DNA from: Candidatus Bipolaricaulota bacterium
Lineage (GTDB): Bacteria; Bipolaricaulota; Bipolaricaulia; RBG-16-55-9
Direction of reading: 5' to 3'
NCBI GenBank assembly: GCA_026982655.1
Contig: JALSGO010000083.1
Location: 30-64,029, forward strand
Length of the DNA: 64,000 bases
The notes beneath the pieces were generated by a model, which saw only the letters and a list, made by a program, of their open reading frames with translations, did not search any database and was not told where the DNA came from. A program made the translations under genes and the position numbers. Shown piece after piece: positions 32,531 through 52,592 of the stretch; the stretch's first letter is position 1; every line of letters begins with the position of its first letter.

Positions 32531-33181
32531 GTGAAAGCGCGGAAGAAACGGCCCGAGGAGGAGCGGTGGGAACTCTCGCCGGAGGCGCGTCGACTGAGCC
32601 GGCGGAAGTTCCTGGCTCGCTTGGGCCTGGGCTCGCTGGTCCTCACGGCGGGAGGAGCGGTCAGCAGCATCGGCGCCTACATCCTGCCGAAGGTGAACTT
32701 TGAGCCCTCTCAAGCGTTTACCGCCGGGCGACCGGAGGACTACAACGTCGGGGACGTGCGGCTGATCGAATCCCAGGCCGTGTTCATCTTCCGCACGCCC
32801 TATGGCTTTCAGGCCGTCTCGGACATCTGCACCCACCTGGGGTGCGCCTATCAGCCGTACGGCCCGCCGGACGACGAGTACCCCCAGGTCCATGCCCATT
32901 GCCCCTGTCACGGGTCGGTCTTCGCGCGGGACGGGCGGGTGTTGCGGGCTCCCGCTCCTCGGCCCGTGCCCTTCTACTACATGACGATCAACCCATCGGG
33001 CTTGCTGGTGGTGGACAAGGGGGTCTACGATCCCACGGACGAGCTGAGCCGCCAGAGCGGCGAGGGGGTAGGGCACAACCTCTATCTCGACCCCGAGACG
33101 GGGCAGATGGTAGAGGGTCCGCTGCCCACCGGCGAGGACCTCCGGTTCGGAGCGATCCGAACCGAGCCCTCTCGAGGCTGA
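32531..33181 (+). CDS. Rieske [2Fe-2S] protein with Tat signal
   Basis: SRRKFLARLG twin-arginine motif, TM anchor, and the CTHLGC...CPCHGS cluster boxes. Confidence 0.88.
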   Translation: MKARKKRPEEERWELSPEARRLSRRKFLARLGLGSLVLTAGGAVSSIGAYILPKVNFEPSQAFTAGRPEDYNVGDVRLIESQAVFIFRTPYGFQAVSDICTHLGCAYQPYGPPDDEYPQVHAHCPCHGSVFARDGRVLRAPAPRPVPFYYMTINPSGLLVVDKGVYDPTDELSRQSGEGVGHNLYLDPETGQMVEGPLPTGEDLRFGAIRTEPSRG

Positions 33182-33268
33182 AGCCCGCGGGTGCGGAACG
33201 GGCGTGGAATAGAGAGAACAAAGAAGGAAGGCAAAGAAAGAATCTCCCAACGATGGAGGTGCTGTTCG

Positions 33269-35848
33269 GTGCAGAGATCGCAGGCACAGGCGAGGACGGC
33301 GACGGAGAAACGGGAGCAAAGCTCCGCGGACACGCGTCTGGAGCTCCCCATCCGCGGGATGACGTGCGCTTCGTGCGTGGCCCGGGTCGAGCGGGCGCTC
33401 CAAGGCGCGCCCGGCGTCCGGGAGGCCCAGGTGAACTTCGCCGCGGAGCGCGCGTCCGTGGTGCTCAACCCGGAGGCGGGCTCCCCGGAAGCGCTGGTGG
33501 AGGCCGTCCGCGAGGCCGGCTATGAGGTCCCCACCGAGGCGCTCACCCTGCGGGTAAAGGGGATGACGTGCGCTTCGTGCGTGGCCCGGGTCGAGCGGGC
33601 GCTTCGCGAGGTCCCGGGAACCTTGAAGGCCGCGGTCAACTTCGCCGCGGAGACGGCCCAGATCGAGTACCTCCCCGGGGTGGCCTCGCCGCAGGACTAC
33701 CTCCAGGCCGTCCGGGACGCGGGCTACGAGGCCCAGCTCGCCGAGGAGGAGCGGGGCGAGGACGCGCTGGAGCGCCAGAGGCGGGAACACGAGGCCCATC
33801 TCAAGAAGCTCCGCCTTAAGATCGCCGTCGGTGCGATCATCAGCGTCCCCGTCTTCTTCGGCAGCTACCCCAAGCTCTTCCCCTGGGTGCCGGAGATCCT
33901 GCAGAACTTCTACGTGCTCTGGGCGCTGACCACCCCGGTGCAGTTCTGGGTCGGCTGGCAGTTCTACAAGGGGACCTGGGCGGCCTTAAAGCACAAGTCC
34001 GCGGACATGAACACGCTGATCGCCGTCGGCACCTCCGCGGCCTACCTCTACAGCGTGCTCCTCATCTTGTTCCCCCGGTTCTTCGAGGCCCAGGGGATCG
34101 CCCGGGAAGTGTACTTTGACACCTCGACGATCATCATCACCCTCATCCTGGTGGGGCGGTATCTCGAGGCCGTGGCCAAGGGACGCACCTCGGAGGCCAT
34201 CCGCAAGCTCATGGGGCTCCAAGCCAAGACGGCCCGCGTGGTCCGCGACGGGCGCGAGATCGAGATCCCCGTCGAGGAGGTCCAGGTCGGCGACATCGTG
34301 GTGGTGCGCCCCGGCGAGAAGGTGCCTGTAGACGGCGTGGTGATCGAGGGCTCCTCCGCGGTGGACGAGTCGATGGTCACGGGCGAGTCGATCCCCGTGG
34401 AGAAGGGCCCCGGCGACGAGGTGATCGGGGCGACGATCAACAAGACGGGGACCTTTACCTTCAAGGCGACCCGAGTGGGCAAGGACACCTTCCTGAGCCA
34501 GATCATCAAGCTGGTCGAGGAGGCCCAGGGCTCGAAGGCCCCCATCCAGCGCCTGGTCGACAAGGTGACGGGCGTCTTCGTCCCGGCGGTGATGCTCATC
34601 GCCTTGGGGACGTTCGTCGTGTGGTACTTCTTCGGGCCGCACCCCGCTTTGACCTATGCGCTGCTCAACGCCGTGTCGGTGCTGATCATTGCCTGCCCCT
34701 GCGCGCTGGGGCTGGCCACTCCGACGTCCATCATGGTGGGGATGGGCAAGGGGGCCGAGCACGGCATCTTGATTCGCAGCAGCGAGGCGCTCGAGCGGGC
34801 GGGCAAGATACAGACCATCGTCTTCGACAAGACGGGGACGCTCACCCGCGGAGAGCCCCAACTGACGGACATCCTCCCCGCGGAGGGCTTCACGGAGGCC
34901 GAGGTGCTCCGACTGGCGGCGGCCGCGGAGCGGCGGAGCGAGCACCCCCTGGGGGAGGCGATCGTCCGAGGCGCCGAGGAGCGGGGGTTGGACTTGGCCG
35001 AGCCGGAGGGCTTCCAGGCGATCCCGGGCCACGGCATCGAGGCCACGGTCGAGGGGCACCGGGTGCTGTTGGGCAACCGGCGGCTCATGGAACGGGAGGG
35101 CGTCGACGTGCGCGCCTTGCAGGCCCAACTGGAGCGACTGGCCGACGAGGGCAAGACCCCCATGATCGTGGCCGTCGACGGCCGGGCAGCCGGGGTGCTG
35201 GCCGTGGCCGACACCCTCAAGGAGGGCTCCCGAGAGGCGATCGAGGCGCTGCACCGGTTGGGCATCGAGGTGGCGATGATCACGGGCGACAACCGGCGCA
35301 CCGCCGAGGCGATCGCCCGCCAGGTGGGGATCGATCGGGTGCTGGCCGAGGTGCTCCCCCAGGACAAGGCCAAGGAGGTCAAGCGCCTCCAGCAGGAGGG
35401 CCGGGTGGTGGCCATGGTGGGCGACGGGATCAACGACGCGCCCGCGCTGGCCCAGGCCGACGTGGGGATCGCCCTGGGGACGGGGACGGACATCGCCATC
35501 GAGACGGCCGAGGTCATCCTGATCTCGGGCGACGTGCGCGGGGTGGTGACCGCCATCGCCCTCTCCCGGGCCACGATCCGCAACATCAAGCAGAACCTCT
35601 TCTGGGCCTTCTTCTACAACACGGCGCTCATCCCTGTGGCCGCCGGGGTGCTCTACCCGTTCACGGGCCTGTTGCTCAACCCCATCCTCGCCGCGGCGGC
35701 GATGGCCACCAGCTCCGTCTCCGTGGTGACGAACGCCCTGAGGCTGCGGCGGTTCCGCCCCCCGGTCGTCCAGGGACCGCCCGGCCCCTCGCGCGGGGAG
35801 CCGCGCCCCGACTCCGTCCCGGTCCCGGCGGCCGGAGCGGGCCGCTAG
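33269..35848 (+). CDS. copA: copper-translocating P1B-type ATPase with two N-terminal HMA domains
   Basis: Two [15 protein letters not shown] motifs, CPC ([12 protein letters not shown]), DKTGTLT and GDGINDAP. Start placed at GTG 33269 (GGAGG 9 nt upstream). The longest ORF begins at GTG 33191 without an RBS. Confidence 0.93.
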
Positions 35849-35923
35849 AGGGCAGAGCGGACGACCGTCGATCGCCCTTGCCCTCGCAACCACAACGAAG
35901 AAGAGAAGAGAGGAGAGGAGAGG

Positions 35924-36238
35924 ATGACCGAAGAACTACTGGTGTTGTTACAGCAGGGGAGCCTGGCGGCCCACCCGGAGGCGAAGCGCCACGCCCAGCG
36001 GCTCGTCCGCACCGTCATCGGCCACACCCAGGGCATCGAGCGGATGATCGAGGAAGAGCGATACTGCATCGACATCTTAAAGCAGATCGCCGCGGTGCAG
36101 GGGCTGCTGACCAAGCTGGCCCACACCGTAAGCGAAGCCCACATGAAACACTGCGTGCGACTGGCCATCGAGGAGGGCCACGGCGAGGAGGCCGTTGAAG
36201 AACTGATGGAGACGCTGAAATACCTGCGGAGCGTATAG
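35924..36238 (+). CDS. csoR: CsoR-family copper-sensing transcriptional repressor
   Basis: 104 aa DUF156 pattern: RLVRTVIGHTQGIERMIEEERYCIDILKQIAAVQGLL...HMKHC, containing the C-H-C Cu(I) ligand set. Confidence 0.88.
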   Translation: MTEELLVLLQQGSLAAHPEAKRHAQRLVRTVIGHTQGIERMIEEERYCIDILKQIAAVQGLLTKLAHTVSEAHMKHCVRLAIEEGHGEEAVEELMETLKYLRSV

Positions 36239-36245
36239 TTCCCCC

Positions 36246-38663
36246 ATGGGGTGGCTGGACGGCCTGCTGCGCCATCGTGGGCTCGTGCTGGGGGCGGCTT
36301 TGCTGCTCACCGTTCCGGCGCTCCTGTCTCTCAGTCGATTGGAGTCCCAGGACACCTACGATGCTTGGTTCCCCCCGGACGACCCGGCGTATCGCTTCTA
36401 TCGGGAGTTCCAGCGGCGGTTTGAGAACGACATGTTCATCGTGGTGGCCTATCGAGACGAGACCCTCTTCACCCGGGAGGGGCTGGCGTTCCTCGCGGAG
36501 CTCACCGCCCGTCTTGCGGAGCTCCCCTACGTGCGGGAGGTGACCAGCCTCACGAACGTCGAGCACGTCCGGGGGGAAGAGCAGGCGCTCATCGTCGAAC
36601 CCCTCGTCCCCGATCCGGAGCGCCTCGATCCCGACGTCGTCCGGCAACGGGCCCTCTCGCGCCCCCTCTACCGCGGGCTGCTGATCTCCGAGGACGGGAC
36701 GACGACCGCGGTCGTCGCCGAACTCGACCGGATCGCCTCCATGGACGAGGAGGCCGCTCTGGTGGGGGCCCTCAAGGACCTCCTGCGCACGCTGGAGGTC
36801 CGAACGGGCAAGTCCTTCTACATCGGGGGCTATCCCGTCCTCGACGTCGAGATCATGCAGGCTTCCGAGCGGGATATCCGGACGTTCATCCCCTTGACCG
36901 TCGGGGCCATCTTCCTCGTATTGTGGGGGGTCTTCCGCCGACCGTCGCTGGCCGCCCTGGCGTTCGTGTCCGTCTCGCTGGCGCTGGCTTGGACCTTCGG
37001 GCTGTACGCCGGCCTGGGTCTTAAGTACAGCATGATGCTGAGCATCCTGCCCACGATCATCCTCGCCATCGGGATTGCGGATGCGGTACACATCTTGGTC
37101 CACTACTACGAGGAGCTCGCCCGGGGGCGGCCGCAGCGGGAGGCCCTCCGTCAGACCCTACGAAAGATGCTCCGCCCCTGTCTGTTCACGACGCTGACGA
37201 CCGGAGCCGGGTTCATCTCGTTCTTGAGCAGCGATATCCCCGTGGTGCGGCTGACGGGGCTCTTTGCCGCGGTGGGCATCGGGCTTGCGTTCGTGCTCAC
37301 GGTGCTCGTGCTGCCCGCAGCCGTCTCGTTTTTCCGCCCGCCGCACGGGACGGCCCGGCGACGGTCTCAGGGCACGTTCGCTCGGGCCTTGGAGGGGCTG
37401 ACCCGAACGACCCTGGCCCACCCGCGCGCCGTGCTCCTGGGGGCCGGGATCGTGCTCGTCTTCGGCCTGTACGGGATCTCCCGCTTGGAAGCCGAGACGC
37501 TGGGCCTGGAGTGGCTGCGCGACGACCACCCCCTCCAGCAGAGCTATCGCTTCATCGAGGAGAACCTCACCGGGCTGTACAACCTCGAGCTCATCGTCGA
37601 GGGCGAACGGGACGCGCTCCGCTCCCCCGAGATGCTCCGCCGGATCGAGGAACTCAGTGCGTTTGCGCTCCAACAGCCGGGCGTGCGCAAGGCGATCTCC
37701 GTGGTCGACTACGTCAAAGAGATCCACCGGGCGCTCCGCGGGGGAGATCCCCGGTACTACACGATCCCGGACACGGCCCGCGACGTCGCGCAGGCGTTGT
37801 TGCTCTACGAGTTCTCCGGGGGACGCGAGCTGCGCGAGATCGTAAGCGGCGACTACAGCGCCGGACGACTCACCCTGCTGCTGGATGCCCTCTCCAGCCG
37901 GGAGTACACCGAGCTCAACCGACGCATCCTCGAGCGCGCCGAGACGTTGGACTTCCCTCGGCCCGTGCAGGCAACCGGTGCAGTGGTCCTGGTCGAGGCG
38001 ATGCTCAAGAAGCTCACCCTCAGCCAGGTCCGGAGCTTGGGGTTGGCTTTGGCCCTGATCACCTTGCTTATGATCGCCCTGTTGCGCTCCTGGAAGTTGG
38101 GGCTGCTCAGCTTGATCCCCAACGGGCTGCCGATCCTGCTGATGTTTGCGACCATGGGCCTGCTCTCCATCCCCCTGGACGCGGCGACGTCCACGGTCGC
38201 GGGGATGGCTTTAGGGATCGCCGTGGACGACACGATCCACTTCTTGACCCGCTTCCGACGCGAACTGAACGTGACGGGCGACTATCGCCGGGCGCTCACG
38301 CAGACGGCCCGGACGGTCGGCCAGGCGATCGTGTTCACGTCCGTGATCCTGCTGGCCGGCTTCAGCGTGCTGTTGCTGGGCAGCTTCAAGGGAACGGTGT
38401 ATATGGGGTTGCTCGTCGGGCTCACGATGCTCTTCGCGCTCGTAGGGGATTTGGTGCTCCTACCCGCGCTGCTCTGGGTCCTCAAGCCCCTCCCTGTGTC
38501 CGCAGCTGCTTCGACCCCGGCTCCGGCTCCGATGGCGGACGATGGCCGATCAGCTTCCGACCAGAGGAGGTTGAGGGAGGTCATGGACGACGCCCCCCGG
38601 GTGCAGGGTACGCTTATGCGTGGCCGGGACGAGGAAACAGGAGCCCGCGAAGCCGGCAGGTGA
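36246..38663 (+). CDS. MMPL/RND-superfamily exporter 1 (HpnN-like architecture)
   Basis: Two 6-TM bundles, each preceded by a large loop, with SSD-like segments (GIADAVHILVHYYEE, GIAVDDTIHFLTRF). Confidence 0.85.
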   Translation: MGWLDGLLRHRGLVLGAALLLTVPALLSLSRLESQDTYDAWFPPDDPAYRFYREFQRRFENDMFIVVAYRDETLFTREGLAFLAELTARLAELPYVREVTSLTNVEHVRGEEQALIVEPLVPDPERLDPDVVRQRALSRPLYRGLLISEDGTTTAVVAELDRIASMDEEAALVGALKDLLRTLEVRTGKSFYIGGYPVLDVEIMQASERDIRTFIPLTVGAIFLVLWGVFRRPSLAALAFVSVSLALAWTFGLYAGLGLKYSMMLSILPTIILAIGIADAVHILVHYYEELARGRPQREALRQTLRKMLRPCLFTTLTTGAGFISFLSSDIPVVRLTGLFAAVGIGLAFVLTVLVLPAAVSFFRPPHGTARRRSQGTFARALEGLTRTTLAHPRAVLLGAGIVLVFGLYGISRLEAETLGLEWLRDDHPLQQSYRFIEENLTGLYNLELIVEGERDALRSPEMLRRIEELSAFALQQPGVRKAISVVDYVKEIHRALRGGDPRYYTIPDTARDVAQALLLYEFSGGRELREIVSGDYSAGRLTLLLDALSSREYTELNRRILERAETLDFPRPVQATGAVVLVEAMLKKLTLSQVRSLGLALALITLLMIALLRSWKLGLLSLIPNGLPILLMFATMGLLSIPLDAATSTVAGMALGIAVDDTIHFLTRFRRELNVTGDYRRALTQTARTVGQAIVFTSVILLAGFSVLLLGSFKGTVYMGLLVGLTMLFALVGDLVLLPALLWVLKPLPVSAAASTPAPAPMADDGRSASDQRRLREVMDDAPRVQGTLMRGRDEETGAREAGR

Positions 38664-38722
38664 GCGGCCTGCTCTGCCGGACGAAGCCATTCGGAAGCGA
38701 GAGGAAGGGAGGAAAGGAACTC

Positions 38723-39373
38723 ATGAACCCGCAGGAACGATGGAACGATGCTCTGACGCCGGAGAAGGAACCGACCGAGGGAGCTCTCTCGACGCCGCCC
38801 CCGGACGGCGCGTCCGAGGGGACCGGAGAGGGGCGGTCCCCTAAGGGGCGAACCGTGGGGATCGCCCTGATCCTCGCCGTGGTCGTGGGGATCGGCATCG
38901 GGTACTCGCTGTATTCCTTGCGGGCCGAGAGGGTGTCCGGGCTGGCGTCCACGGGGAGGGAGGTAGACCGGGGCCTCGGCGGCGGCATGCCGGCGATCGT
39001 GGTGGCCCCGCTGCTTAGGGATCTCGGGGAGGTGAGCGTCCAAGGGGGGACGGTGACCACCTTCTTCACCGTGCGCAATCCCGGGGACGGGGTGCTGGTC
39101 ATCACCGACATGGAGACTTCCTGTATGTGCACGGAGGTCGCTTTGATCGTGGACGGCGTGGAAGGCCCTCGACTCGGGATGCGCGGCCACGGTCCGCGGC
39201 CCGAGTGGTCGGCCCGGCTGAACCCGGGCGAGGAGGCGACCCTTAAGGTCTACTACGACCCCACGGTACACGAGGAGCTACGCGGACCGGTCACCCGCGT
39301 GGTGCGGGTTCACACGAACGTCCCCACCCGTCCCTACGTGGACATCTTGATCGATCTGGTGCAAACGGACTGA
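38723..39373 (+). CDS. DUF1573-domain protein (TM-anchored), copy a
   Basis: N-terminal anchor followed by LGEVSVQGGTVTTFFTVRNPGDGVLVITDMETSCMCT, which matches the DUF1573 SCGCT signature region. Confidence 0.7.
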   Translation: MNPQERWNDALTPEKEPTEGALSTPPPDGASEGTGEGRSPKGRTVGIALILAVVVGIGIGYSLYSLRAERVSGLASTGREVDRGLGGGMPAIVVAPLLRDLGEVSVQGGTVTTFFTVRNPGDGVLVITDMETSCMCTEVALIVDGVEGPRLGMRGHGPRPEWSARLNPGEEATLKVYYDPTVHEELRGPVTRVVRVHTNVPTRPYVDILIDLVQTD

Positions 39374-39424
39374 CTCCCGTGGGCAGACCGAAGGCTACAC
39401 GACAATCGGGGAGGGAATGCCAAG

Positions 39425-40000
39425 GTGATGAACGGGGAATCGAGGGACAAGGACCAAGGTCAGAATACGGAGATGCACGCGATCCGCCGCCGGGCGGCCT
39501 TCTTGAGCCGAGGCGGAGTGAGCCTGCCCCTCCTGATCATCGGGGTCCTCCTGGCCCTGGGGACGACTGCGGGCCTGGGGTATTTGCGTCTGGCGGGCCC
39601 ACCGGCGGCAGGCCCTCCGCGCATCGAGGTCACGCCGGAGCTCATCGAGTTCGGAGAGATCTCCCCCACCGAGAAGGCGGTCGTGGAGTACCGTGTGCGA
39701 AACGCCGGGGGAAGCCCGTTGGAGATCACCCGCGTGAGCACCTCGTGTGGGTGCACCACCGCCGAGGTCGGCAAGACGACGCTCCTCCCCGGCGAGACGA
39801 CTCCGTTGCGCGTCACCTTCGACCCCCAAGCGATGCGGGCCGAAGGGCTCAACGAGGAGGACATCTACCGGATCATCTTCCTAAGGAGCAACGACCCCGA
39901 GCGGCCGGAGGTTACCGTCGAGCTTCGCGGTCGCGTCCTGCCGTCGGACTCGGACTCGAACTCGAACTCGGAGCCGGAGTCTGCCGTCGAGGGGAGGTAA
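39425..40000 (+). CDS. DUF1573-domain protein (TM-anchored), copy b
   Basis: FGEISPTEKAVVEYRVRNAGGSPLEITRVSTSCGCTTA, with a Ser/Asp/Asn-rich tail. GGGGAGGGA RBS. Confidence 0.75.
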   Translation: MMNGESRDKDQGQNTEMHAIRRRAAFLSRGGVSLPLLIIGVLLALGTTAGLGYLRLAGPPAAGPPRIEVTPELIEFGEISPTEKAVVEYRVRNAGGSPLEITRVSTSCGCTTAEVGKTTLLPGETTPLRVTFDPQAMRAEGLNEEDIYRIIFLRSNDPERPEVTVELRGRVLPSDSDSNSNSEPESAVEGR

Positions 40001-40015
40001 CCGAAGCGCTCGGTT

Positions 40016-40040
40016 GGGGCCGGGCACGGGGGACGGCCCC
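40016..40040 (+). terminator. GC hairpin after the DUF1573 pair (GGGGCCG-N11-CGGCCCC), no U-tail
   Basis: 7-bp stem located 16 nt after the stop. It could be an attenuator or terminator. Confidence 0.3.
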
Positions 40041-40045
40041 CTAAT

Positions 40046-40065
40046 CCCACCCCAGGAGGGAAGGG
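40046..40065. promoter_or_regulatory. degenerate CsoR-type site: CCCACCCC-AGGA-GGGAAGGG
   Basis: The left half is perfect and the right half matches 6 of 8, with the same 8-N4-8 spacing. Located 34 nt upstream of copA2. Confidence 0.35.
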
Positions 40066-44582: not shown

Positions 44583-45304
44583 TCCGCTACGCGCTCTTCG
44601 ACTTGGACGACACGCTCTATCCCCCGGCGGCGGGGCTCATGGAGGCCCTCAGCCGCCGCTTTACGCAGTGCATCGCCGAGGAGCTGGGCATCTCCCTCGA
44701 ACAAGCCGAGGCCCTGCGGCGCGAGTACGGCAAGCGCTACGGCTCGACCACGCGGGGGCTCGCCCTGCATCACCACGTGGACATCGGGGGATTTTTGGCC
44801 AAGGTCCACGACCTGCCCATCGAGGAGTATCTGCAGCCCGACCCCGAGCTGGGGTGTTTGTTGGACTGCATCGACGCGCAGAGGTGCATCTTCACCAACG
44901 CGCCGGAGGCCTACGCCCGGCGGGTGTTAGACGTCCTGGGCGTCGCGGATCGCTTCTGTCGGGTCTTCGCGGTCGAGTTCTCGGGTTATAGGGGCAAGCC
45001 CGACCCCCTCGTCTACGAGCGGGTGGTCGCCGAGCTGGGCGCTTCCGACCCGGAGATCGTGATGCTCGACGACGTGCGGGCCAACCTCCTCCCCGCCGCG
45101 CAGAGGGGCTGGACGACCGTCTGGGTCAACGGGCGGGGGAAGCCCGCCGACCCTCAAGACCTCGACGGGATCTCCTATGCGGTGGGCGACCTCTGGGAGG
45201 TGGCCCGCGTCTTCCGCGAGATCGGGCTCCTCGACGAGGCCCACCACGAGGAGTGGAACCGCTGCCTCCTCCGGTGCCCGCTGGGCCGGAGACGGGCTGG
45301 GTGA
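44579..45304 (+). CDS. HAD-superfamily hydrolase (pyrimidine 5'-nucleotidase-like)
   Basis: FDLDDTLY motif I, TNAP motif II and a late LDD motif. The ATG overlaps the upstream stop (ATGA). Confidence 0.8.
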   Translation: MIRYALFDLDDTLYPPAAGLMEALSRRFTQCIAEELGISLEQAEALRREYGKRYGSTTRGLALHHHVDIGGFLAKVHDLPIEEYLQPDPELGCLLDCIDAQRCIFTNAPEAYARRVLDVLGVADRFCRVFAVEFSGYRGKPDPLVYERVVAELGASDPEIVMLDDVRANLLPAAQRGWTTVWVNGRGKPADPQDLDGISYAVGDLWEVARVFREIGLLDEAHHEEWNRCLLRCPLGRRRAG

Positions 45305-45329
45305 CCTTGCTGGACGTCTTCCGGGGGGA

Positions 45330-45374
45330 ACATGACGCAGATCATTGATCCCACCCCACGGGGGGTGGGATAAT
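45330..45374 (+). promoter_or_regulatory. 45-nt promoter/operator module, copy 1: ATGAC-N4-ATCAT, TTGATC(-35), CsoR-type operator 2 (45350..45369) and GATAAT(-10)
   Basis: CCCACCCC-ACGG-GGGGTGGG fills the 18-nt spacer. The module is colinear with 48290..48334. Confidence 0.65.
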
Positions 45375-45405
45375 GGCGGGCGAAAGGCGGGCGAAGGAGG
45401 GACGC

Positions 45406-46491
45406 ATGGAAGCACAGAAGACGGTCATGCAAAGCCGACGGCGACGCCTCTGGGAGGCGCTCGACGAGCGCCTGGGGTTGAGCGCCCTGAGGTACCCCGT
45501 CCCCGCCCACGCCAACACGCTGGGATATATGTTAGGCGGGATCACCCTCTTTGGCTTCCTCATCTTGATCGCCACAGGCATTTATCTTACGCAGTTCTAC
45601 AACCCCGACCCCAGCCAAGCCCACGACAGCGTCGTCTACCTCGTCGAGCAGACGACGTTCGGGGACCTCGTCCGCAGCATCCACTACTGGACGGCCAACT
45701 TGGTGGTCGTCACCGTTCTCCTCCACCTTCTACGGATCTTCTTTGCGGGGGCGTACAAGCGGCCCCGGGAGGCCAACTGGCTGGTCGGCTTGGCGCTTTT
45801 GGCGATCACCATCGGCTTCGTCTTCACCGGCACGGTCCTCAAGTGGGACCAAGAGGCCTACGAGGCGATGCTCCACAACATGGCCTTCTCGGAGCTTCTG
45901 GGCGGGATCGGGAGCTGGTTCTCCCCAAGTTTTACCCTGAGCGTGCCGATGCTCACCCGCCTCTACGCCGTCCACATCGCGGTGCTCCCGGCGCTCTTCC
46001 TCATCTTGATCGCGATTCATCTGATGCTGGTCAAGTACCACGGGATCTCGCCGCTGCCCACCCTGAACGCTCGGGCGGGCACCTGGGGCAAGGAAGGGAC
46101 GGGCCGCTTCTCCGCGCACCTGCGGCGCATGGTGGGCTACGGGCTATGGCTGCTGGCCTTAGCGGGGGTGCTGGCGCTCCTCTGGCCCGCGCCGCTGGGC
46201 TATCCCCCGGTTCCGGGCGCCGAGGTGACGAAGCCCCCGTGGTTGTTCCTGTGGCTCTACGCCTTCGAGAACTGGGTGGGGACCGCCGGGCTGCTCTGGC
46301 CACCGCTTGTGCTCTTCCTGCTGCTGGCGTTGGTGCCCTTCCTCGACCGCAGCCCCTATCTGGCACCCCGAAAGCGACCCGTAACCGTCACGCTCGGCGT
46401 GGTGCTGTTGCTCTTTTTGGTCGGGTTGAGCGTGTACGTGGCCCTCACCCCGCCGGTGAGCCACATCCAAGGGCAAGGGATGGGAGGTTGA
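45406..46491 (+). CDS. cytochrome b (fused N- and C-terminal domains), paralogue 1
   Basis: RSIHYWTANLVVVTVLLHLLRIFF (H-x13-H), YAVHIAVLPALFLILIAIHLM (H-x14-H), and KPPWLFLWLYAFEN at the PEWY position. Start at ATG 45406 (GAAGGAGGG RBS); the upstream ATG 45373 lies inside the -10 box. Confidence 0.88.
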   Translation: MEAQKTVMQSRRRRLWEALDERLGLSALRYPVPAHANTLGYMLGGITLFGFLILIATGIYLTQFYNPDPSQAHDSVVYLVEQTTFGDLVRSIHYWTANLVVVTVLLHLLRIFFAGAYKRPREANWLVGLALLAITIGFVFTGTVLKWDQEAYEAMLHNMAFSELLGGIGSWFSPSFTLSVPMLTRLYAVHIAVLPALFLILIAIHLMLVKYHGISPLPTLNARAGTWGKEGTGRFSAHLRRMVGYGLWLLALAGVLALLWPAPLGYPPVPGAEVTKPPWLFLWLYAFENWVGTAGLLWPPLVLFLLLALVPFLDRSPYLAPRKRPVTVTLGVVLLLFLVGLSVYVALTPPVSHIQGQGMGG

Positions 46492-46495
46492 GACC

Positions 46496-47077
46496 ATGCG
46501 ACCACAGAGCAGTTGGGTTCACGTCGGTTGGATCACAGCGTTGCTGACGGTGGCGGTGGGGATCGGGCTTGCGGTGGGGCTTCCGGGACGGGCCCACGAG
46601 GGCGCGGAGGTGAGCGCCTATCCTACCACCGTGGCCCCGGGGGAGACGCTCTTCGTGGAGGGCGCGGACATCAACCCTAACGGCCCGATCGCCCTCTTCT
46701 TGGAGGGCGTAAAGGGCAAGTTCCGCCTGGGTCAGGTCCGGGGGGACGAGGACGGCGGGTTCAAGACGAGCGTGGCCCTCCCGCCGGATCTCCCGCCGGG
46801 GACCTATTTGTTGGTGGCCGTCGGGGCCAACGGGGAGAAGGCCACCTTCTCGGTGACGGTGGCCGCCGCGGTAAGCTCCCTCACCCAAGAGCCCAGGGAG
46901 CCCACGGACGCGCTCATGGAGCTGGACCGGTCAAGGTCCTCCGAGGAGTGGGCGTTCCTCGCCGTCGTGATCGGGCTGAGCCTGCTCCTGGGGGCGTGGC
47001 TGGCCCGCCCGGAACGGATGGTTGCACCTGCCTCTCCTTCTGCCTCCGCCGCCGAGCCCGACGGGAGCGGGCCTTGA
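46496..47077 (+). CDS. hypothetical exported protein with C-terminal TM anchor; predicted mature N-terminus is His
   Basis: Signal peptide ending LPGRA followed by HEGAEV, a beta-rich Ig-like middle, and the C-terminal helix WAFLAVVIGLSLLLGAWLA. GGGAGG RBS. Confidence 0.6.
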   Translation: MRPQSSWVHVGWITALLTVAVGIGLAVGLPGRAHEGAEVSAYPTTVAPGETLFVEGADINPNGPIALFLEGVKGKFRLGQVRGDEDGGFKTSVALPPDLPPGTYLLVAVGANGEKATFSVTVAAAVSSLTQEPREPTDALMELDRSRSSEEWAFLAVVIGLSLLLGAWLARPERMVAPASPSASAAEPDGSGP

Positions 47078-47103
47078 GCGCAAAGGGGGCCGAGAGGAAG
47101 GAG

Positions 47104-48309
47104 ATGAGCCGACGGGGGTACGAAGGAGTTTCGGTCGTGGGGGCCGGACCGGCGGGGCTTGTGGCGGCCCTCACGCTGGCCCGCGCAGGCGTCCCCGTCA
47201 CCGTCTACGAGAAGGGGCCGACGGTGGGCACCCGCTTCCACGGCGACTTTCAAGGCTTAGAGAACTGGTCCCGCGAGCTCGACGTCTTGGAGGATCTCCG
47301 GACGATGGGGCTTGCGATCAACTTCGCCGTGCAACCGCGCGACTCAGCGGACTTCTACGACGCCTGGGACCGGAAGTACGACATCAGGACCCGAGAGCCC
47401 CTCTTCTATCTGGTGCGCCGCGGGGGTGGGGAGGGGAGCCTCGACCGCGGGCTCTACGCCCAGGCCCGGGAGGCCGGGGTGCGGTTCCGTTTCCACACCA
47501 AGCTCGATCGGGTGGAGGGCCCGGCGATCGTGGCCACCGGCCCGCGCTACGCCGACGGCATCTGCGTGGGCTACCTCTTCGAGACGGACCTAGAAGACCT
47601 TACGGCCTGCATCCTCTCCCAGCGCCTGGCCCCCCGCGGCTACAGCTACCTCCTGGTGGCCGACGGTCGGGCGACGCTGGTGAGCTGCCACTTCGCCGAC
47701 CTCCCCCGCTGGCGGGATCATCTGGAGGCCACCGTCGAGGCCTTCCGAAAGCTTTACCGCTTTGAGATGCGGAACCCCCGCTTCTTCTCCGGCTACGGGA
47801 ACCTCTTCGCCCGGGGGCGCTTCCGCGACGGCCAAAAACTCTACGTGGGCGAGGCCGCCGGGCTCCAGGACGGCCTGTGGGGCTTCGGGATGCGCTTTGC
47901 CCTGCGCTCGGGATATCTGGCGGCCCAGAGCCTGCTCTCCGGCCAAGACTACGACGAGCTGGTCCGAAGGGAGCTTCTGCCGCACCACCGGGCGGGGCTG
48001 GTCAACCGCTTTTTCTGGAACCTCTTGAGCGATCGCATGTTGGCGTTCTTCCTGCGGCGGGCGGCGCGCTGGACCGACCTTCGGGGGCGGCTGCGCGAGC
48101 TCGCCGGGCCCCGTCCCTGGAAGGATCGGCTCTATCCCTTCATCCGGGGAGCCTGCGGCTGGCGGGCCCGCTACCGCGACGAGCGCTGCCTCCGGGAGGG
48201 GTGTCCCTGCATCGGGTGCGCGTGTCGGAGTCCTTCGCGTACGATCTCGAGCCCCTGCGTCTCTTGGGGAGCGGCTCGGTTCCGACTCGACATGACGCAA
48301 GTCATTTGA
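47104..48309 (+). CDS. FAD-dependent oxidoreductase (geranylgeranyl-reductase-like) with Cys-rich C-terminal tail
   Basis: VSVVGAGPAGLVAALTLARAG dinucleotide motif and the tail CLREGCPCIGCAC. GAGAGGAAGGAG RBS. Confidence 0.8.
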   Translation: MSRRGYEGVSVVGAGPAGLVAALTLARAGVPVTVYEKGPTVGTRFHGDFQGLENWSRELDVLEDLRTMGLAINFAVQPRDSADFYDAWDRKYDIRTREPLFYLVRRGGGEGSLDRGLYAQAREAGVRFRFHTKLDRVEGPAIVATGPRYADGICVGYLFETDLEDLTACILSQRLAPRGYSYLLVADGRATLVSCHFADLPRWRDHLEATVEAFRKLYRFEMRNPRFFSGYGNLFARGRFRDGQKLYVGEAAGLQDGLWGFGMRFALRSGYLAAQSLLSGQDYDELVRRELLPHHRAGLVNRFFWNLLSDRMLAFFLRRAARWTDLRGRLRELAGPRPWKDRLYPFIRGACGWRARYRDERCLREGCPCIGCACRSPSRTISSPCVSWGAARFRLDMTQVI

Positions 48310-48334
48310 CCCACCCCCTCTGGGGTGGAATAAT
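48290..48334 (+). promoter_or_regulatory. 45-nt promoter/operator module, copy 2: ATGAC-GCAA-GTCAT, TTGACC(-35), CsoR-type operator 3 (48310..48329) and AATAAT(-10)
   Basis: CCCACCCC-CTCT-GGGGTGGA occupies the -35/-10 spacer region. The -35 overlaps the stop codon of the FAD oxidoreductase gene. Confidence 0.65.
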
Positions 48335-48342
48335 AGAGTGAA

Positions 48343-48669
48343 ATGTCTGCAGAAGCGCGGCGCGGGATCGACAGCAGGTTCCGGGATCTCCTGTCCCTGT
48401 TGCTCATCGGGGTGTTGATCCTGCCGATGGCCGGCCCCTCCGGCCCCTTCACGGAGTCAGGGGCGTGTTCGGGGAACCCGCTTGAGGCGGGATGCGCTGC
48501 GATTCTGCATGTCGCCCGAGGCACGGCCGGTCATTGCCTGCCTTGTGGTGCCGTTGTCCTCCTGAGCTCTCCTCTGCCCTTTGCCTGGGCACTCGTAGGG
48601 GATTGGACTTCCGCCGGACTTGGCAGCCCGTTGGATCCGTCCTTTGTGCCCTGGCGTCCCCCTGCCTGA
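48343..48669 (+). CDS. hypothetical small membrane protein, Cys/His-containing, predicted leaderless
   Basis: The ATG lies 8 nt after the -10 box with no SD. One TM helix (LLSLLLIGVLILPMAG) and motifs CSGNPLEAGC and HCLPCG. Coding status is uncertain. Confidence 0.35.
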   Translation: MSAEARRGIDSRFRDLLSLLLIGVLILPMAGPSGPFTESGACSGNPLEAGCAAILHVARGTAGHCLPCGAVVLLSSPLPFAWALVGDWTSAGLGSPLDPSFVPWRPPA

Positions 48670-48784
48670 CCTCCGCTTCGTTCTTTTGCCCGTGCCCGCG
48701 GTCCTTTGAACGGGCCTTCGTCGGCCTAAGGGATCGTACGTATCTCAACTCCATCTGCAATCTGCACAAGGAGCAGGAGGTCGA

Positions 48785-49270
48785 GTGCCAATGCCTAAGA
48801 AGACGAACAAGGATCGGAAGGTCAAGCAGCAGCGTCTACTCCGGCAGGGGGCGGCCGGGGGCTGGCGGCCCTGGGCCTTTGGGGCCGTCACCCTCGGGGT
48901 GCTAACAGCCGCGTTTGGGCTGCTCTTGCCGAAGTTCTTCGCCGACGGTCCCGCAGCGGACGGGGAGGCCAACGTCATCCTGGTCGAAGCGGACATGGCC
49001 GGGCTCTATCCCAAGGAGATCCGGGTCAAGGCCGGGGAGCCCGTGACCATCCGCCTGCGCAGCTTGGACAACCGGTTCCACCTGGACGGGGGAGGCAAGC
49101 ACCAGTTCGCCATCGACGAGCTGGGGGTCAACATCATCGCTCCGCCGCTCGGCACGGCCGAGGCCACCTTCATCCCTACGGAACCGGGTGAATACGAGTT
49201 CTACTGCGACATCTGCTGCGGCGGGCGGGCCAACCCGACCATGGTAGGGAGGCTGATCGTCGAGCTATGA
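48785..49270 (+). CDS. cupredoxin-fold (Cupredoxin_1-like) membrane-anchored protein 2
   Basis: TM anchor and C-terminal PGEYEFYCDICCGGRANPTMVGRLIV. GGAGCAGGAGG RBS. An alternative ATG lies at 48791. Confidence 0.75.
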   Translation: MPMPKKTNKDRKVKQQRLLRQGAAGGWRPWAFGAVTLGVLTAAFGLLLPKFFADGPAADGEANVILVEADMAGLYPKEIRVKAGEPVTIRLRSLDNRFHLDGGGKHQFAIDELGVNIIAPPLGTAEATFIPTEPGEYEFYCDICCGGRANPTMVGRLIVEL

Positions 49271-50109
49271 GCGCTCTGACCCAGATCTCCGCGCGCAAGG
49301 TGGTGCTGGCCTCGGCGATCGCCCTGGGGGTGATCGCCGCCGCGGTCTTCTTGGGGCTGCGGCACCCCTCCGCCCAGGCCGTCCCGATGAGCCCGCTCCT
49401 CCCGGCGGTGACGCTGGGGACCATCGTGGTGGCCGGGATCGTCGACGGGATCAACCCCTGTGCCTTCACGGTGCTCCTACTGTTCGTTACTGCCCTGCTC
49501 GCGAGCCTGCAAACCCGCAGCGACGTCGGGATCGCCGAGAACGTGGGGGCCACGCGCGCCCGGATCGTGGGGCTCGGCTCCATCTACATCGCAGCCATCT
49601 TCCTCACCTACCTGGCGCTGGGGGCGGGGCTCTTGGTGACGGCAGATCTCTTCGTGCGGGAGCACCTGCCCGCCCGGATCGGGGCGCTGCTCGCCATCTT
49701 CCTCGGGCTGTGGATGCTCAAGGACTACTTCCTGCCCGGGTGGGGCTGGCGGCTGGGGGCCCCCAAGGTCGTGGGGGAGTGGGCCCGGCGCGCGGCCCGG
49801 AAGATGACCGTCCCGGCGCTGGCGCTCGGGGGCTTTCTCATCGGGCTCTGCACCGTGCCCTGCAGCGGGGCGGTCTACCTGGCGGTGCTGGCGCTCCTCT
49901 CGACCCAGCCGACCGCGACGGCCTTCGGGTACCTGGTGCTCTACAACCTGATGTTCATCCTCCCGTTGGTCGGGGTGCTGGCCGTGGCCGCGTCGCGCCC
50001 GGCGCTGAACCGCTTGGCCCGCTGGAACCTCCACCACCGGGAGGGGGTCCGGCTGGCCTTGGGGTCGGGTGTCGTGCTCATGGGGCTGTTCATCCTGTAC
50101 ACCGTCTAG
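49267..50109 (+). CDS. CcdA/DsbD-family thiol:disulfide electron-transfer membrane protein
   Basis: GINPCAF and CTVPCSG Cys motifs in TM helices, as in CcdA/DsbD/ScsB cores. The ATG overlaps the upstream stop (ATGA). Confidence 0.8.
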   Translation: MSALTQISARKVVLASAIALGVIAAAVFLGLRHPSAQAVPMSPLLPAVTLGTIVVAGIVDGINPCAFTVLLLFVTALLASLQTRSDVGIAENVGATRARIVGLGSIYIAAIFLTYLALGAGLLVTADLFVREHLPARIGALLAIFLGLWMLKDYFLPGWGWRLGAPKVVGEWARRAARKMTVPALALGGFLIGLCTVPCSGAVYLAVLALLSTQPTATAFGYLVLYNLMFILPLVGVLAVAASRPALNRLARWNLHHREGVRLALGSGVVLMGLFILYTV

Positions 50110-50159
50110 CTGGGAAACGGAGAACGGATCGAGAACCCAGGAGAAAGGAGGAAGCGGCG

Positions 50160-50480
50160 GTGAACAACCATCATGCGGGAGGCGGCAAGCCCTGCCACGT
50201 CGAGCGGCTGGAGAAAGAGGTGGACATGGAGGCGCTGCGCTCCACCCGGGTCAGCATCCTGGCGGTGACGGGGATGGGGTGTCCCAACTGTGCCCTGCGG
50301 GTGCACAACGCGCTCCTCGCCCTCCCCGGCGTCCATCGGGTGGACGTGGAGCTGGAGGCCGAGCGGGCGATCGTCTACTGGGACCCGACCGCCCTGCAGC
50401 CGGAGAGGCTGATCGAGGCGGTCTCCCAGGCTGCGGCGGGGACCCCTCACGACTACCGGGCGTACTTCGTGAAGCCGTAG
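50160..50480 (+). CDS. HMA-domain metallochaperone-like protein with His-rich N-terminus
   Basis: VTGMGCPNCALRVHNAL (GMxCxxC) and the N-terminal NNHHAGGGKPCH. GTG start 9 nt after AGGAGG. Confidence 0.75.
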   Translation: MNNHHAGGGKPCHVERLEKEVDMEALRSTRVSILAVTGMGCPNCALRVHNALLALPGVHRVDVELEAERAIVYWDPTALQPERLIEAVSQAAAGTPHDYRAYFVKP

Positions 50481-50642
50481 CGGAGCCACAGACGCAGAGC
50501 GGGGCTGCCCGGGGCCCGAGTCACCGTCGTCGCATCGGCTTCCACCTCCGCCCCGGGCAGCTCCCCGCCCTGCCCGCCGACGGCAGGGAGCTCCCACACA
50601 CGGGGAGAGAAGGAGAAAGGGAAGACACAAGGAGGGATTTCC

Positions 50643-51173
50643 ATGGACCTTAGGCTCATCGCCGTTGCGATCGTCTCCTTGGCGCTGGGGTTCCTCTTGG
50701 CCTCCGGCCTGCGCCCGGAGGTCGGGGTGGGGCCTTCGGAGGCGGAGCGGATCTTGGAGCGGCTGCGGCGCGAGATCATCCCGGAGGAGGGCAGCCCCAC
50801 GGGCTACGGGATCGCCTTCAGCGAGGCGGGCTACCAGACCCTGGTGGCCAAGAACCGCACACTCAGCGTCCCGCCCGAGCGGGCGGACGACTTCGAGGGC
50901 CTGGACATGAGCCTGCCCTGCTGTCCCTTCCAGAGCCCGAGCGTCGACGAGGCGAAGAACTGCCCGTGCGAGCACCATCAGGCGCTCTACGGGCTGGCCA
51001 AGTGGCTCCTCCAAGAAGACTATCCCGCAGACCGGGTCCAGGAGGAGGTGGCGCGCTGGAGCCGCTACCTCTTCCCCAAGGAGGCGCTGCGGGCGGAGAT
51101 GGAGCGGCGGGCGAAGCTCGATCCCGCCGTCGAAGCCGCCCTGGAGGAGCTCAAGGCCAAGGGGAAGTGCTAG
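50643..51173 (+). CDS. membrane-anchored Cys/His-rich hypothetical protein (LPCCPF...NCPCEHH)
   Basis: N-terminal TM helix and a clustered Cys/His motif reminiscent of the PCYCGC-motif family (recalled with low certainty). AAGGAGGGA RBS. Confidence 0.6.
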   Translation: MDLRLIAVAIVSLALGFLLASGLRPEVGVGPSEAERILERLRREIIPEEGSPTGYGIAFSEAGYQTLVAKNRTLSVPPERADDFEGLDMSLPCCPFQSPSVDEAKNCPCEHHQALYGLAKWLLQEDYPADRVQEEVARWSRYLFPKEALRAEMERRAKLDPAVEAALEELKAKGKC

Positions 51174-51227
51174 GCCGATTGGAACAGGGACGACCCGACG
51201 AGATCGAGGACGAGGAGGCGAGCGACG

Positions 51228-52541
51228 ATGATGGCATCCACAGCCGAACCGGCGGAAACGGAACCCCGACGGGGCGGGGGCCTGGGGAAGAGCCTTCGGG
51301 AGCGCTGGGCGCTCTGGACCCTGGGGCTGTTCGCCCTGCTGATCGTAGGGCTCTTCTTCTTCTACCGCCCGCCCATGGAGGAGAGCATCACGGGGGACAC
51401 CTTCCACCCCATCCGCGGGCTGATCGGCTTCCCCCACGGCCCGGGGGCCGCCGCGGAACCCTACGACGAGGAGGCCCTCGACCGCTTCGTGGAGGAGACG
51501 ATCGCGGAGACCTACGCCAAGGCGCGCATCGATCAGATCAAGCTCCTCCTCATGGGGCTCCTCATCGGCTTGATCCCGCTGGGCTATTACCGCGGTCGGT
51601 CGGACCGCCTAAAGCGCCTGGGACAGCGGGTCAACAAGATCTGGGACCCCTACACCTTCGGCACCGTCTCGGGGCTCCTTTTGGTGGGGGTGATCATCCC
51701 TACGGGGACGGTCCTCGGCCTCTTCTACAGCGCCGACGCGGAGAAGCTCTACGAGAGCATGGCGGGCATCGTGGGGAACCCCATCCTGAGTTTCCTGCGC
51801 AACCTCCACCTCTGGGCCTCGGAGGCGTTCTTGCTCTTCCTGTTCCTGCACACGGCCCGGATCGTCTCCACGCGGGCCTACTTTGCGGGACGCAAGCTCG
51901 TCTGGGTTCTGGGTGTCGTGCTGCTTGTGATCAGCTGGGCGACCTTCCTGATCGGCACCTTCATCCGGGGGGACCAGGAAGCGTTTGAGGCCTGGGTCCA
52001 CATGATGGCCCTCATCCGCTTCATCCCCCTCGTCGGGGACCCGATCGCCGACTTCTTCTCCGGCCCCTTCGCCGTCATGCGGCTGTACGTCTTCCACATC
52101 GTGATCACCACCATCGCCTTGCTGCTGATTCTGGCACCCCACGTGCTGATGCAGAAGGTGTACGTCCACGTGCAGCGGCGCTGGAGGGCGGCCCTTCGCT
52201 ACACCCTGGGGCTTACGGCCCTGATCGCGGTCCTCAGCCTGCTGGTGCCCGCCCCCTTCCTGGCGGAGCCCTACCACGACCTGGAGATCACCAAGCCACC
52301 GTGGCCCTATTACTTCCTGTACGCCTGGGAGAACATCGGCGGCGCGGTGAGCATGATCTGGTCGCCGCTGCTCATCCTGGTGCCGCTGCTTCTGCTGCCG
52401 TACGCGCTGGAGCAGCTGCCACTCGCCCGCCGGACCGCCCAACGGGTGGGCGACTGGGTCTTCTACGGCGGGGTCCTGATCACCTTAGGGCTGAGCTACT
52501 GGGTGGCCGCCTCGGGAATTGTGGCCCACGTCTTCGAATGA
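51228..52541 (+). CDS. divergent cytochrome b-like protein, paralogue 2, with N-terminal extension of about 130 aa
   Basis: RNLHLWASEAFLLFLFLHTARI (H-x13-H), YVFHIVITTIALLLILAPHVLM (H-x14-H), and KPPWPYYFLYAWEN. Confidence 0.8.
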   Translation: MMASTAEPAETEPRRGGGLGKSLRERWALWTLGLFALLIVGLFFFYRPPMEESITGDTFHPIRGLIGFPHGPGAAAEPYDEEALDRFVEETIAETYAKARIDQIKLLLMGLLIGLIPLGYYRGRSDRLKRLGQRVNKIWDPYTFGTVSGLLLVGVIIPTGTVLGLFYSADAEKLYESMAGIVGNPILSFLRNLHLWASEAFLLFLFLHTARIVSTRAYFAGRKLVWVLGVVLLVISWATFLIGTFIRGDQEAFEAWVHMMALIRFIPLVGDPIADFFSGPFAVMRLYVFHIVITTIALLLILAPHVLMQKVYVHVQRRWRAALRYTLGLTALIAVLSLLVPAPFLAEPYHDLEITKPPWPYYFLYAWENIGGAVSMIWSPLLILVPLLLLPYALEQLPLARRTAQRVGDWVFYGGVLITLGLSYWVAASGIVAHVFE

Positions 52542-52582: not shown

Positions 52583-52592
52583 GAGACCATAT

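Follow-up and report, generated by a model that had tools for sequence, protein, structure and literature searches.

The 64,000-nucleotide stretch of Candidatus Bipolaricaulota DNA analysed here (contig JALSGO010000083.1 of assembly GCA_026982655.1; hereafter the window) carries an island of copper-related genes, which also includes a Rieske iron-sulfur protein and two cytochromes b. The island is best explained as a predicted Cu(I)-sensing CsoR regulon; it has at least four promoters that bear an operator and belongs to the chromosome of a host resembling Bipolaricaulota or 'Fraserbacteria'. With moderate confidence, we propose that part of this regulon might form a redox arm of copper defence that is induced by copper and coupled to the quinone pool. 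The parts of this arm would be a duplicated bc-type Rieske protein, two Cys-free cytochromes b, an anchored protein with a mature N-terminal His (p193), a tri-Cys CuA-like cupredoxin with its CcdA-like partner, and an FAD oxidoreductase. The efflux and trafficking side of the regulon would comprise two CopA pumps, a CupA-type chaperone, a CopZ-type chaperone, and MMPL pumps.

Copper operators and the CsoR regulon

The window has a G+C content of about 67%. Genes were called by third-position GC and then checked against Pfam; the island features given below lie on the + strand. Four exact copies of the palindrome CCACCCC-N4-GGGGTGG were found, at 32482, 45351, 48311, and 52594. A site search placed operator 1 (32482-32499, CCACCCCACCGGGGGTGG) behind a promoter-like TTGACA-17-TATCGT (32440-32499 with the operator). 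Operators 2 (45351-45368) and 3 (48311-48328) lie between the -35 and -10 hexamers of promoter-like sites at 45345-45374 and 48306-48334, respectively; operator 4 (52594-52611) follows a promoter-like TTGACA-17-TACAGT (52554-52611). A degenerate operator with two mismatches (40047-40064) precedes the CopA2 gene, and its counterpart in the close relative L001 (position 4328) is intact. When up to two mismatches were allowed, six sites were found against 1.3 expected, and six were reached in none of 100 shuffles. Only three sigma-70-like sites occur within 32000-51999, all of which coincide with operators 1-3. An earlier annotation of the window (the original prediction) had named three CsoR-type operators; these are all present exactly, and it had missed the fourth exact copy at 52594 and the degenerate site at 40047.

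The CsoR repressor (35924-36238; Pfam Trns_repr_metal, E=6e-24) contains Cys48, His73, and Cys77, as read from its sequence. Their 25- and 4-residue spacing equals that of C36/H61/C65 in the Mycobacterium tuberculosis protein (PMC10601412). CsoR sites have been defined experimentally in M. tuberculosis (GTAGCCCACCCCCAGTGGGGTGGGATAC) and Thermus thermophilus (CCCCACCCCACCTGGGGTGGGG) (PMC10601412, PMC10318464), and the window operators are near-identical to them in sequence. A persulfide-sensing CstR-type regulon was rejected as an alternative, since the His ligand is present in the regulator and CopA, CupA, and CopZ genes in the units. The operator-headed genes are probably induced by copper.

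Each exact operator heads a string of genes. Operator 1 is followed by the Rieske gene, CopA1, CsoR, MMPL1, two DUF1573 genes, the degenerate operator at 40047, CopA2, a Cupredoxin_1 gene, a beta-CASP gene, and a HAD gene. Operator 2 is followed by cytochrome b-1, p193, and the FAD oxidoreductase; operator 3 by p108, a second Cupredoxin_1 gene (48785-49270), the CcdA-like and CopZ-like genes, p176, and cytochrome b-2; and operator 4 by MMPL2, a LolA-like gene, and a CMAS gene. The Rieske gene is therefore first behind operator 1, cytochrome b-1 is first behind operator 2, and cytochrome b-2 is last in the string of operator 3, just where they had been placed before.

Rieske protein and its paralogue

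The Rieske [2Fe-2S] protein (32531-33181; PF00355, E=1.7e-10; PDB 9rk4_A, E=2e-18) is predicted to be of the bc/b6f type, and its best matches are the Rieske proteins of bc1 and b6f complexes. As described earlier, it has a twin-arginine translocation (Tat) signal and the cluster boxes CTHLGC and CPCHGS; the twin-arginine motif reads SRRKFL. Its homologues are largely limited to Bipolaricaulota-like lineages; relatives are labelled Candidatus Bipolaricaulia or Fraserbacteria. Most of the homologues head an operon in the order of Rieske, a short b6-like cytochrome b (252-271 aa), RnfC, RnfD, and Fer2/FeS proteins. This operon was seen at 14 loci, one of which (L086) adds RnfG/E/A. The joining of a Rieske/cytochrome b module with Rnf-type subunits was also searched for in the literature, and no paper was found for Bipolaricaulota, Rieske, and Rnf.

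The paralogue phylogeny showed that a copper-linked Rieske subclade (the window, L084, and L175) and an independent branch (L100) head copper clusters. In all four lineages, the Rieske gene lies directly behind a promoter and a CsoR-type operator. The operator-Rieske-CopA arrangement of L084, L175, and L100 occurs at GC contents of 65%, 62%, and 55%, respectively. The sequence form GC-A-Y-x-P-Y, as against GC-S-Y-K-P-F, was tried as a marker of the copper-linked proteins and failed; one protein of the A/Y form (P0128) sits in an Rnf operon.

In the sample of a close relative, the Rnf-type Rieske operon was found on a separate contig. The tetranucleotide correlation of this contig to the copper-island contig (r=0.98) is equal to the within-contig value, and the GC is the same. 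Therefore, the lineage probably has both Rieske forms, and the island copy, which shares 66-72% identity with the Rnf-operon Rieske, would be an extra paralogue. The original prediction had asked about other Rieske/cytochrome b genes, and had noted that it would fall if the island held the only bc genes of the organism; given the paralogous Rieske-short cytochrome b-Rnf operon, this is probably not the case. In the close relative, CuA-type COX2 and COX1 genes are also located 7 kb from the Rieske gene, with no CsoR operator.

Cytochromes b and their neighbours

Cytochrome b-1 (45406-46491; PF00033, E=1.7e-29) and cytochrome b-2 (51228-52541; PF00033, E=3.5e-18) are both Cys-free. The two His pairs, H-x13-H and H-x14-H, which give four heme His, were read from both sequences in agreement with the earlier annotation. 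KPPW likewise occupies the position of PEWY at the quinol-oxidizing (Qo) site, as TKPPWL in cytochrome b-1 and TKPPWP in cytochrome b-2. In the survey of Kao and Hunte, PPWF was reported in Archaea only, and the window variant is not listed for Bacteria (PMC4122944). The best NCBIfam match of both proteins is ExtP, the b-type cytochrome of a selenite/tellurite reduction operon; the score of 176 bits is well below the cut-off of 290 and too low to assign them to that family.

Cytochrome b-1 is a full-length protein of the TKPPW clade, whose closest solved relatives are cytochrome b6 proteins (E=2e-37). An AlphaFold2 (AF2) model, with a predicted local distance difference test score (pLDDT) of 78.5, gave template modelling (TM) scores of 0.69-0.74 to full-length bc1/bcc cytochromes b. 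Alignment of 25 family members showed 67% mean column identity, and the heme His, TVLKWDQE, and E-x-TKPPW residues are invariant. The clade was found in at least 597 carrier genomes, in a scan with one genome per species. The carriers belong to the Chloroflexota, the Actinomycetota (including cultured Arthrobacter, Cryobacterium, Cellulomonas, and Propionicimonas), the Nitrospinota, and Methylomirabilis.

The neighbourhoods of cytochrome b-1 homologues are rich in copper genes. A P1B ATPase lies within 10 kb in 16 of 25 loci, which were all non-Nitrospinota loci with at least 4 kb of sequence on both sides. Among 229 open reading frames located within 4 kb of the cytochrome b gene, the commonest Pfam family is E1-E2_ATPase (12); the tally also holds Cupredoxin_1 (at least 6), HMA (6), Copper-bind (4), YHS (4), LGT (4), multicopper oxidase (2), and the CsoR family (2). 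The frequent families of these 229 frames do not include Rieske, and a Rieske gene was found within 10 kb of the homologue in 2 of 83 loci. As a rough control, CopA was present in none of nine metagenome Rnf-type Rieske loci. In the close relative L001, both cytochrome b genes keep their syntenic positions, and an operator lies 5' of cytochrome b-1.

Homologues are also carried by plasmids. On plasmid pI of Streptomyces mirabilis P16B-1 (L091), the cytochrome b gene (84156-85283) is part of an operon-like array of DMT, hypothetical, cytochrome b, hypothetical, P1B-ATPase, and DUF302 genes; the published study of this metal-resistance plasmid does not mention the cytochrome b gene. Another lies on plasmid pA of Pseudarthrobacter defluvii E5 (L090). 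The cytochrome b genes of L090 and of two loci on a Chloroflexi chromosome (L002 and L003) share as neighbours a DUF2933 protein, an ICMT-like methyltransferase, an EamA/DMT transporter, a UbiB/ABC1 kinase, and a type II GAPDH. These shared neighbours suggest a mobile multi-gene module, which might possibly touch quinone or lipid metabolism.

The cytochrome b-1 homologue is always adjoined by a small protein that has a signal peptide and is anchored at its C-terminus, and three types were distinguished. The first type is p193 (46496-47077), located downstream of cytochrome b in Bipolaricaulota and Chloroflexota. It has a signal peptide, a mature N-terminal His (predicted cleavage at RA|HEG), a predicted Ig-like beta-sandwich, and a C-terminal membrane anchor. 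The second type is helical and upstream, in Actinomycetota, with a mature N-terminus of H/D-E/G-G and an LGHLAHD motif. The third type is His/Met-rich and upstream, in Nitrospinota, where the genes for a PCYCGC protein and for a TlpA-like thioredoxin come before it. About 600 representatives of the p193 family were recovered at E<=1e-3. Among 50 small members inspected, His directly follows the predicted signal-peptide cut in 49, a C-terminal helix is present in 47, and Cys is absent from 42; some have Met/His-rich linkers. No Pfam match was found for p193, and its profile gave generic, weak Ig-like (titin) matches alone against the PDB sequences. An N-terminal His on a beta-sandwich would resemble the copper sites of CopC, YcnI, and the lytic polysaccharide monooxygenases (LPMO).

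Cytochrome b-2 is rare and divergent, with two extra N-terminal helices. Its homologues amount to 17 proteins at 40% identity or more. Three of their loci hold YHS, P1B-ATPase, DsbD_TM/Redoxin, Ccm, PCYCGC, DUF1573, and DUF302 genes, and none of the three holds a Rieske gene; an FAD oxidoreductase gene lies directly downstream of the homologue in one locus. Genes for thiol reductants (CcdA-like, TlpA-like, DsbD_TM/Redoxin, and PCYCGC) are found repeatedly beside the homologues of both cytochromes b. The short Rnf-linked cytochrome b was compared with cytochromes b-1 and b-2, with the question which of the two might be the ancestral partner of the Rieske protein; the identities (34-38% vs. 27-29%) were uninformative.

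Cupredoxin-fold proteins

The two membrane-anchored cupredoxin-fold proteins reported earlier were recovered by the Cupredoxin_1 family, at 42768-43142 (E=8e-23) and 48785-49270 (E=4e-13), and each has a single N-terminal hydrophobic helix. The first gene overlaps the stop of CopA2 by 4 nt. Its product aligns with PDB entries 2MRY and 4F2E (E=3.6e-22), including the bridging Cys and the C-x-M-x-M motif, and has a transmembrane segment at residues 1-19. CupA, anchored in the membrane, serves CopA as a Cu(I) chaperone (PMC7558416). By these features the protein is clearly a CupA homologue, the predicted Cu(I) chaperone of CopA2. Therefore, it is no candidate acceptor for the Rieske protein. The CopA-CupA gene pair was seen again in many loci. 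CupA-type genes follow CopA, often with overlap, in Bipolaricaulota, Chloroflexota, and Actinomycetota (the window and four other loci); a 2020 review had placed CupA in only a few streptococci (PMC7558416).

The second protein is an anchored CuA-like cupredoxin, which aligns weakly with the CuA domain of N2O reductase (NosZ; E=1e-5). It keeps the CuA His, C-x3-C, and Met; the second His is missing, and an extra Cys makes it a tri-Cys protein. It has the full ligand set of neither a type-1 Cu site (His, Cys, His, Met) nor a CuA site (H...C-x3-C-x3-H-x2-M). An H..DGGGxHQF / YCDICCGG(K/R)xNPxM signature is invariant in its family. The stop of this gene is overlapped by 4 nt by the gene for a CcdA/DsbD-like membrane protein with NPCA and GLCTVPCSG motifs (49267-50109). 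The YCDICCGG cupredoxin is always followed by such a CcdA-like protein, in the window and in six other loci. These motifs point to Cu(I)/thiol chemistry as a better fit for the pair than electron shuttling, though the cupredoxin may have a redox role. The pair appears to be an uncharacterised periplasmic copper/thiol module.

These assignments do not bear out the quinol:cupredoxin electron-transfer chain of the original prediction, as the first cupredoxin is a CupA-type chaperone, and the second lacks the second CuA His and is paired with a CcdA-like protein. In addition, no classical type-1 Cu or canonical CuA motif was found in any frame of the window. The absence of a heme-c motif was upheld: CxxCH occurs in no open frame of at least 60 aa across the whole 64 kb.

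Proposed mechanism and alternative explanations

In the proposed redox arm, cytosolic Cu(I) would release CsoR, and the redox-arm proteins would be made. These proteins would link the quinone pool with the outer side of the membrane: quinol would be oxidised at the Qo site of cytochrome b, and the acceptor of the high-potential electron would be the Rieske cluster of the island, copper-loaded p193, or both. From there, the electron would reach copper-handling proteins outside the cytoplasm or Cu(II). The CcdA-like thiol route would work in parallel. As the outcome, copper sites and thiols would stay reduced and functional under copper stress, without any c-type cytochrome. We infer both the physical complexes and the direction of electron flow. 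The direction from quinol to periplasm is favoured because it is thermodynamically downhill, because genes for reductant delivery (CcdA-like, TlpA-like, and DsbD-type) recur beside both cytochrome b families, and because a cytochrome b-type quinol dehydrogenase would be a natural route in the absence of c-type cytochromes. By analogy, the MsrPQ system of Escherichia coli may also serve as a precedent: copper induces msrPQ, and MsrQ supports the periplasmic repair needed for copper tolerance (PMC9302797).

Several observations weigh against this proposal. The Rieske gene is 12 and 18 kb from the two cytochrome b genes, in separate promoter units. Both cytochrome b families are generally without an adjacent Rieske gene, so the Rieske protein and two cytochromes b may not form one split complex. 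Outside the window lineage, no CsoR-like site was found directly 5' of cytochrome b homologues in other phyla, where the sites precede CopA genes, and the Nitrospinota cytochrome b-1 loci have no CopA nearby. Copper binding by p193 is predicted from the N-terminal His pattern alone. Its single-sequence AF2 model (pLDDT 48.6) was unusable and was left out of the fold search. Reduction of Cu(II) to the more toxic Cu(I) also seems counter-productive for detoxification. Finally, Pro at the second Qo position has been tied to complexes which are proposed or known to run in reverse (PMC4122944), and this favours the opposite direction.

The opposite direction is the basis of a serious rival, which we nevertheless consider unlikely. 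This is an O2-independent cuprous oxidase chain, the first option of the original prediction with different carriers. Here p193 or other copper proteins would oxidise periplasmic Cu(I), and electrons would flow via the Rieske protein and the PPW cytochrome b into the quinone pool, in a reversed Q cycle driven by the proton-motive force, as a substitute for CueO. Oxidation of Cu(I) is indeed the direction suited to detoxification, and a multicopper oxidase that could do this is absent from the window, as noted before (HCHxxxH occurs in no frame), and accounts for only the two neighbour frames in the cytochrome b-1 tally. Pro at Qo position 2 is shared with the PPWY bc1 of Acidithiobacillus ferrooxidans and with the APWY clade, for the latter of which a reversed Q cycle has been proposed. 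However, electrons would have to move strongly uphill from Cu(I) to reach a low-potential quinone. Members without a Rieske protein would need a copper site that reduces heme bL directly, and an aerobe with a CuA oxidase, like that beside the island in the relative, could oxidise Cu(I) via a cupredoxin and the oxidase, with no cytochrome b needed. The co-encoded CcdA-like and thioredoxin-like genes suggest that reductant is delivered rather than removed.

It is also rather improbable that the island encodes a copper-conditional respiratory branch or stress isoforms. According to this explanation, copper-tolerant Cys-free paralogues would replace copper-damaged Rieske and cytochrome b proteins and feed a copper-dependent terminal oxidase, without direct handling of copper. 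The recent paralogy of the island and Rnf-operon Rieske proteins and the absence of cysteine from both cytochromes b are consistent with it. The copper-linked Rieske subclade has also lost a C-terminal CxPC motif within its own clade; however, this tail is missing too from the L086-type Rnf-linked Rieske proteins. In the relative, the COX2/COX1 genes near the Rieske gene (7 kb away) could provide the oxidase, but they lack a CsoR operator, and the window has no oxidase genes. Similarly, classical type-1 cupredoxins lie beside cytochrome b or Rieske genes in some loci, but a classical electron-transfer cupredoxin is absent from the window. CsoR reacts to copper excess and is not known to have respiratory targets. 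The tight pairing of cytochrome b-1 with N-terminal-His proteins and the plasmid operons with P1B-ATPases argue for metal handling.

A further possibility, which we regard as quite doubtful, is that the TKPPW cytochrome b forms a widespread complex with Rieske absent or optional. An anchored N-terminal-His (histidine-brace-like) copper protein would then be the high-potential partner at the Qo site, and the whole would be a copper-based analogue of complex III. If so, it would connect the quinone pool with copper outside the cytoplasm in Chloroflexota, Actinomycetota, Nitrospinota, Bipolaricaulota, and metal-resistance plasmids, with direct CsoR control in the window.

Coincidental co-location, with the Rieske and cytochrome b genes as passengers in a metal-resistance island whose operators serve the transporters only, is very unlikely: the island is mosaic, its gene order differs between lineages, and it includes genes without an obvious copper role (beta-CASP, HAD, and CMAS), but an operator lies immediately 5' of Rieske in four lineages and of cytochrome b-1 in two, the association of cytochrome b with copper ATPases spans phyla and plasmids, and the high column identity and invariant heme and Qo residues place the cytochrome b family under strong purifying selection.

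Other genes of the island and the window

The pumps were assigned by Pfam. CopA1 (33191-35848) is a P1B-type ATPase with two HMA domains, and CopA2 (40099-42771) has a YHS domain and two HMA domains. A CopZ-like HMA protein with a GMGCPNC motif (50226-50480; HMA, E=1e-13), encoded between the CcdA-like gene and p176, is absent from the earlier gene list. The list also lacked the HAD hydrolase gene (44579-45304), which is located between the beta-CASP metallo-beta-lactamase gene (43191-44582) and operator 2; both were identified by Pfam, and their order is the same in L001.

In the operator 3 unit, the small hydrophobic p108 (48343-48669) has a CLPC motif and is conserved in L001. The anchored Cys-rich p176 (50643-51173; PCCPF...CPCEHH) has no family match. 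The FAD-dependent oxidoreductase (47104-48309) is similar to geranylgeranyl reductases and has a Cys-rich C-terminal tail. Such oxidoreductases were also seen beside Rieske, cytochrome b-1, or cytochrome b-2 genes in L084 (11522-12664), L087 (2295-3455), L051, L025, and L039; the tail ...CPCIGCAC... is present in the window and L084 copies.

Pfam further identified an MMPL/RND-superfamily transporter (MMPL1, 36246-38663) and two DUF1573 Ig-like proteins (38723-39373 and 39425-40000) in the operator 1 unit, and MMPL2 (52619-55573), a LolA-like protein (55625-56407), and a CMAS-type methyltransferase (56461-57798) behind operator 4. With the gene at 58189-60585, three MMPL/RND-superfamily transporters lie in or beside the island, two of them in operator-headed units. 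The MMPL transporters, the LolA-like protein, and the DUF1573 proteins may form a CsoR-controlled system that exports copper or lipids through the envelope. The window also contains a NosD-like beta-helix protein on the - strand (10530-12116), and, on the + strand, an hrcA-dnaK-dnaJ heat-shock cluster (21421-26156) and a beta-propeller protein that ends in a rhodanese domain (61682-63124).

Novelty and significance

Current accounts of bacterial copper homeostasis include pumps, chaperones, multicopper oxidases, and one specific cupric reductase, CcoG; neither 'Rieske' nor 'cytochrome b' occurs in the 2020 review (PMC7558416). Literature searches for cytochrome b/Rieske with CsoR and copper, and for 'cytochrome b N-terminal domain-containing' with copper, found nothing relevant. 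The families of the single parts are known. What we found undescribed is the Rieske/cytochrome b proteins as core members of a copper regulon, together with a module of cytochrome b and an N-terminal-His partner in metal-resistance loci. If the coupling of quinone and copper is true, it would explain copper redox at the membrane in organisms without a CueO-type oxidase or c-type cytochromes. It would also give a function to a large unannotated cytochrome b clade, and widen CsoR regulons by a new type of target. Because cultured actinobacteria and plasmids carry homologues, a direct test is possible.

Comparison with known systems

The window proteins were compared with the bc1, b6f, actinobacterial bcc, and Sulfolobus SoxLN systems. 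As in these systems, the Rieske protein has both cluster boxes, the disulfide cysteines, and the Tat signal. The cytochromes b have the two His pairs on helices B and D, the four ligands of hemes bL and bH, with a b6-type H-x14-H on helix D, and the b6-like PREANW and WDQE motifs; the predicted fold of cytochrome b-1 also matches full-length cytochromes b. However, the window genes are neither co-transcribed nor co-inherited, being apart in separate units, with family members elsewhere lacking a Rieske neighbour. The Qo motif is PPWL/PPWP, not PEWY/PDWY. There is no dedicated high-potential acceptor in the window, either a cytochrome c or a classical blue copper protein, and the control is predicted to be by a copper repressor.

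The PetI bc1 complex of A. ferrooxidans with rusticyanin is similar in that it combines a Rieske/cytochrome b system with Pro at Qo position 2, copper proteins, and possibly reverse flow (PMC4122944). Unlike the window system, PetI includes cytochromes c and c1 and functions in iron oxidation at low pH; copper does not regulate it.

The product of 42768-43142 resembles CupA of the Streptococcus pneumoniae CupA-CopA pair in the N-terminal anchor, the bridging Cys with C-x-M-x-M, and the adjoining CopA gene. However, the N-terminal domains of the window CopA2 are HMA and YHS, not cupredoxin-type, and the phylum is distant from the streptococci.

MsrQ of E. coli is a quinol-linked heme-b protein. 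As a functional analogy only, MsrPQ is likewise copper-induced, with a membrane partner on which the protection of the periplasm during copper stress depends (PMC9302797). However, MsrQ belongs to the ferric-reductase-domain family, not to the bc-type cytochromes b, and the window has no MsrP-like molybdoenzyme.

The CsoR regulons known from the cso operon of M. tuberculosis and from copZ-csoR-copA of T. thermophilus share with the window a GC-rich pseudo-palindromic operator that overlaps the promoter, and a C-H-C CsoR encoded beside a Cu(I) P1B-ATPase. Unlike those regulons, the predicted regulon of the window also takes in members that the 2020 review does not mention: the Rieske protein, both cytochromes b, the CcdA-like protein, the CuA-like cupredoxin, and the MMPL pumps.

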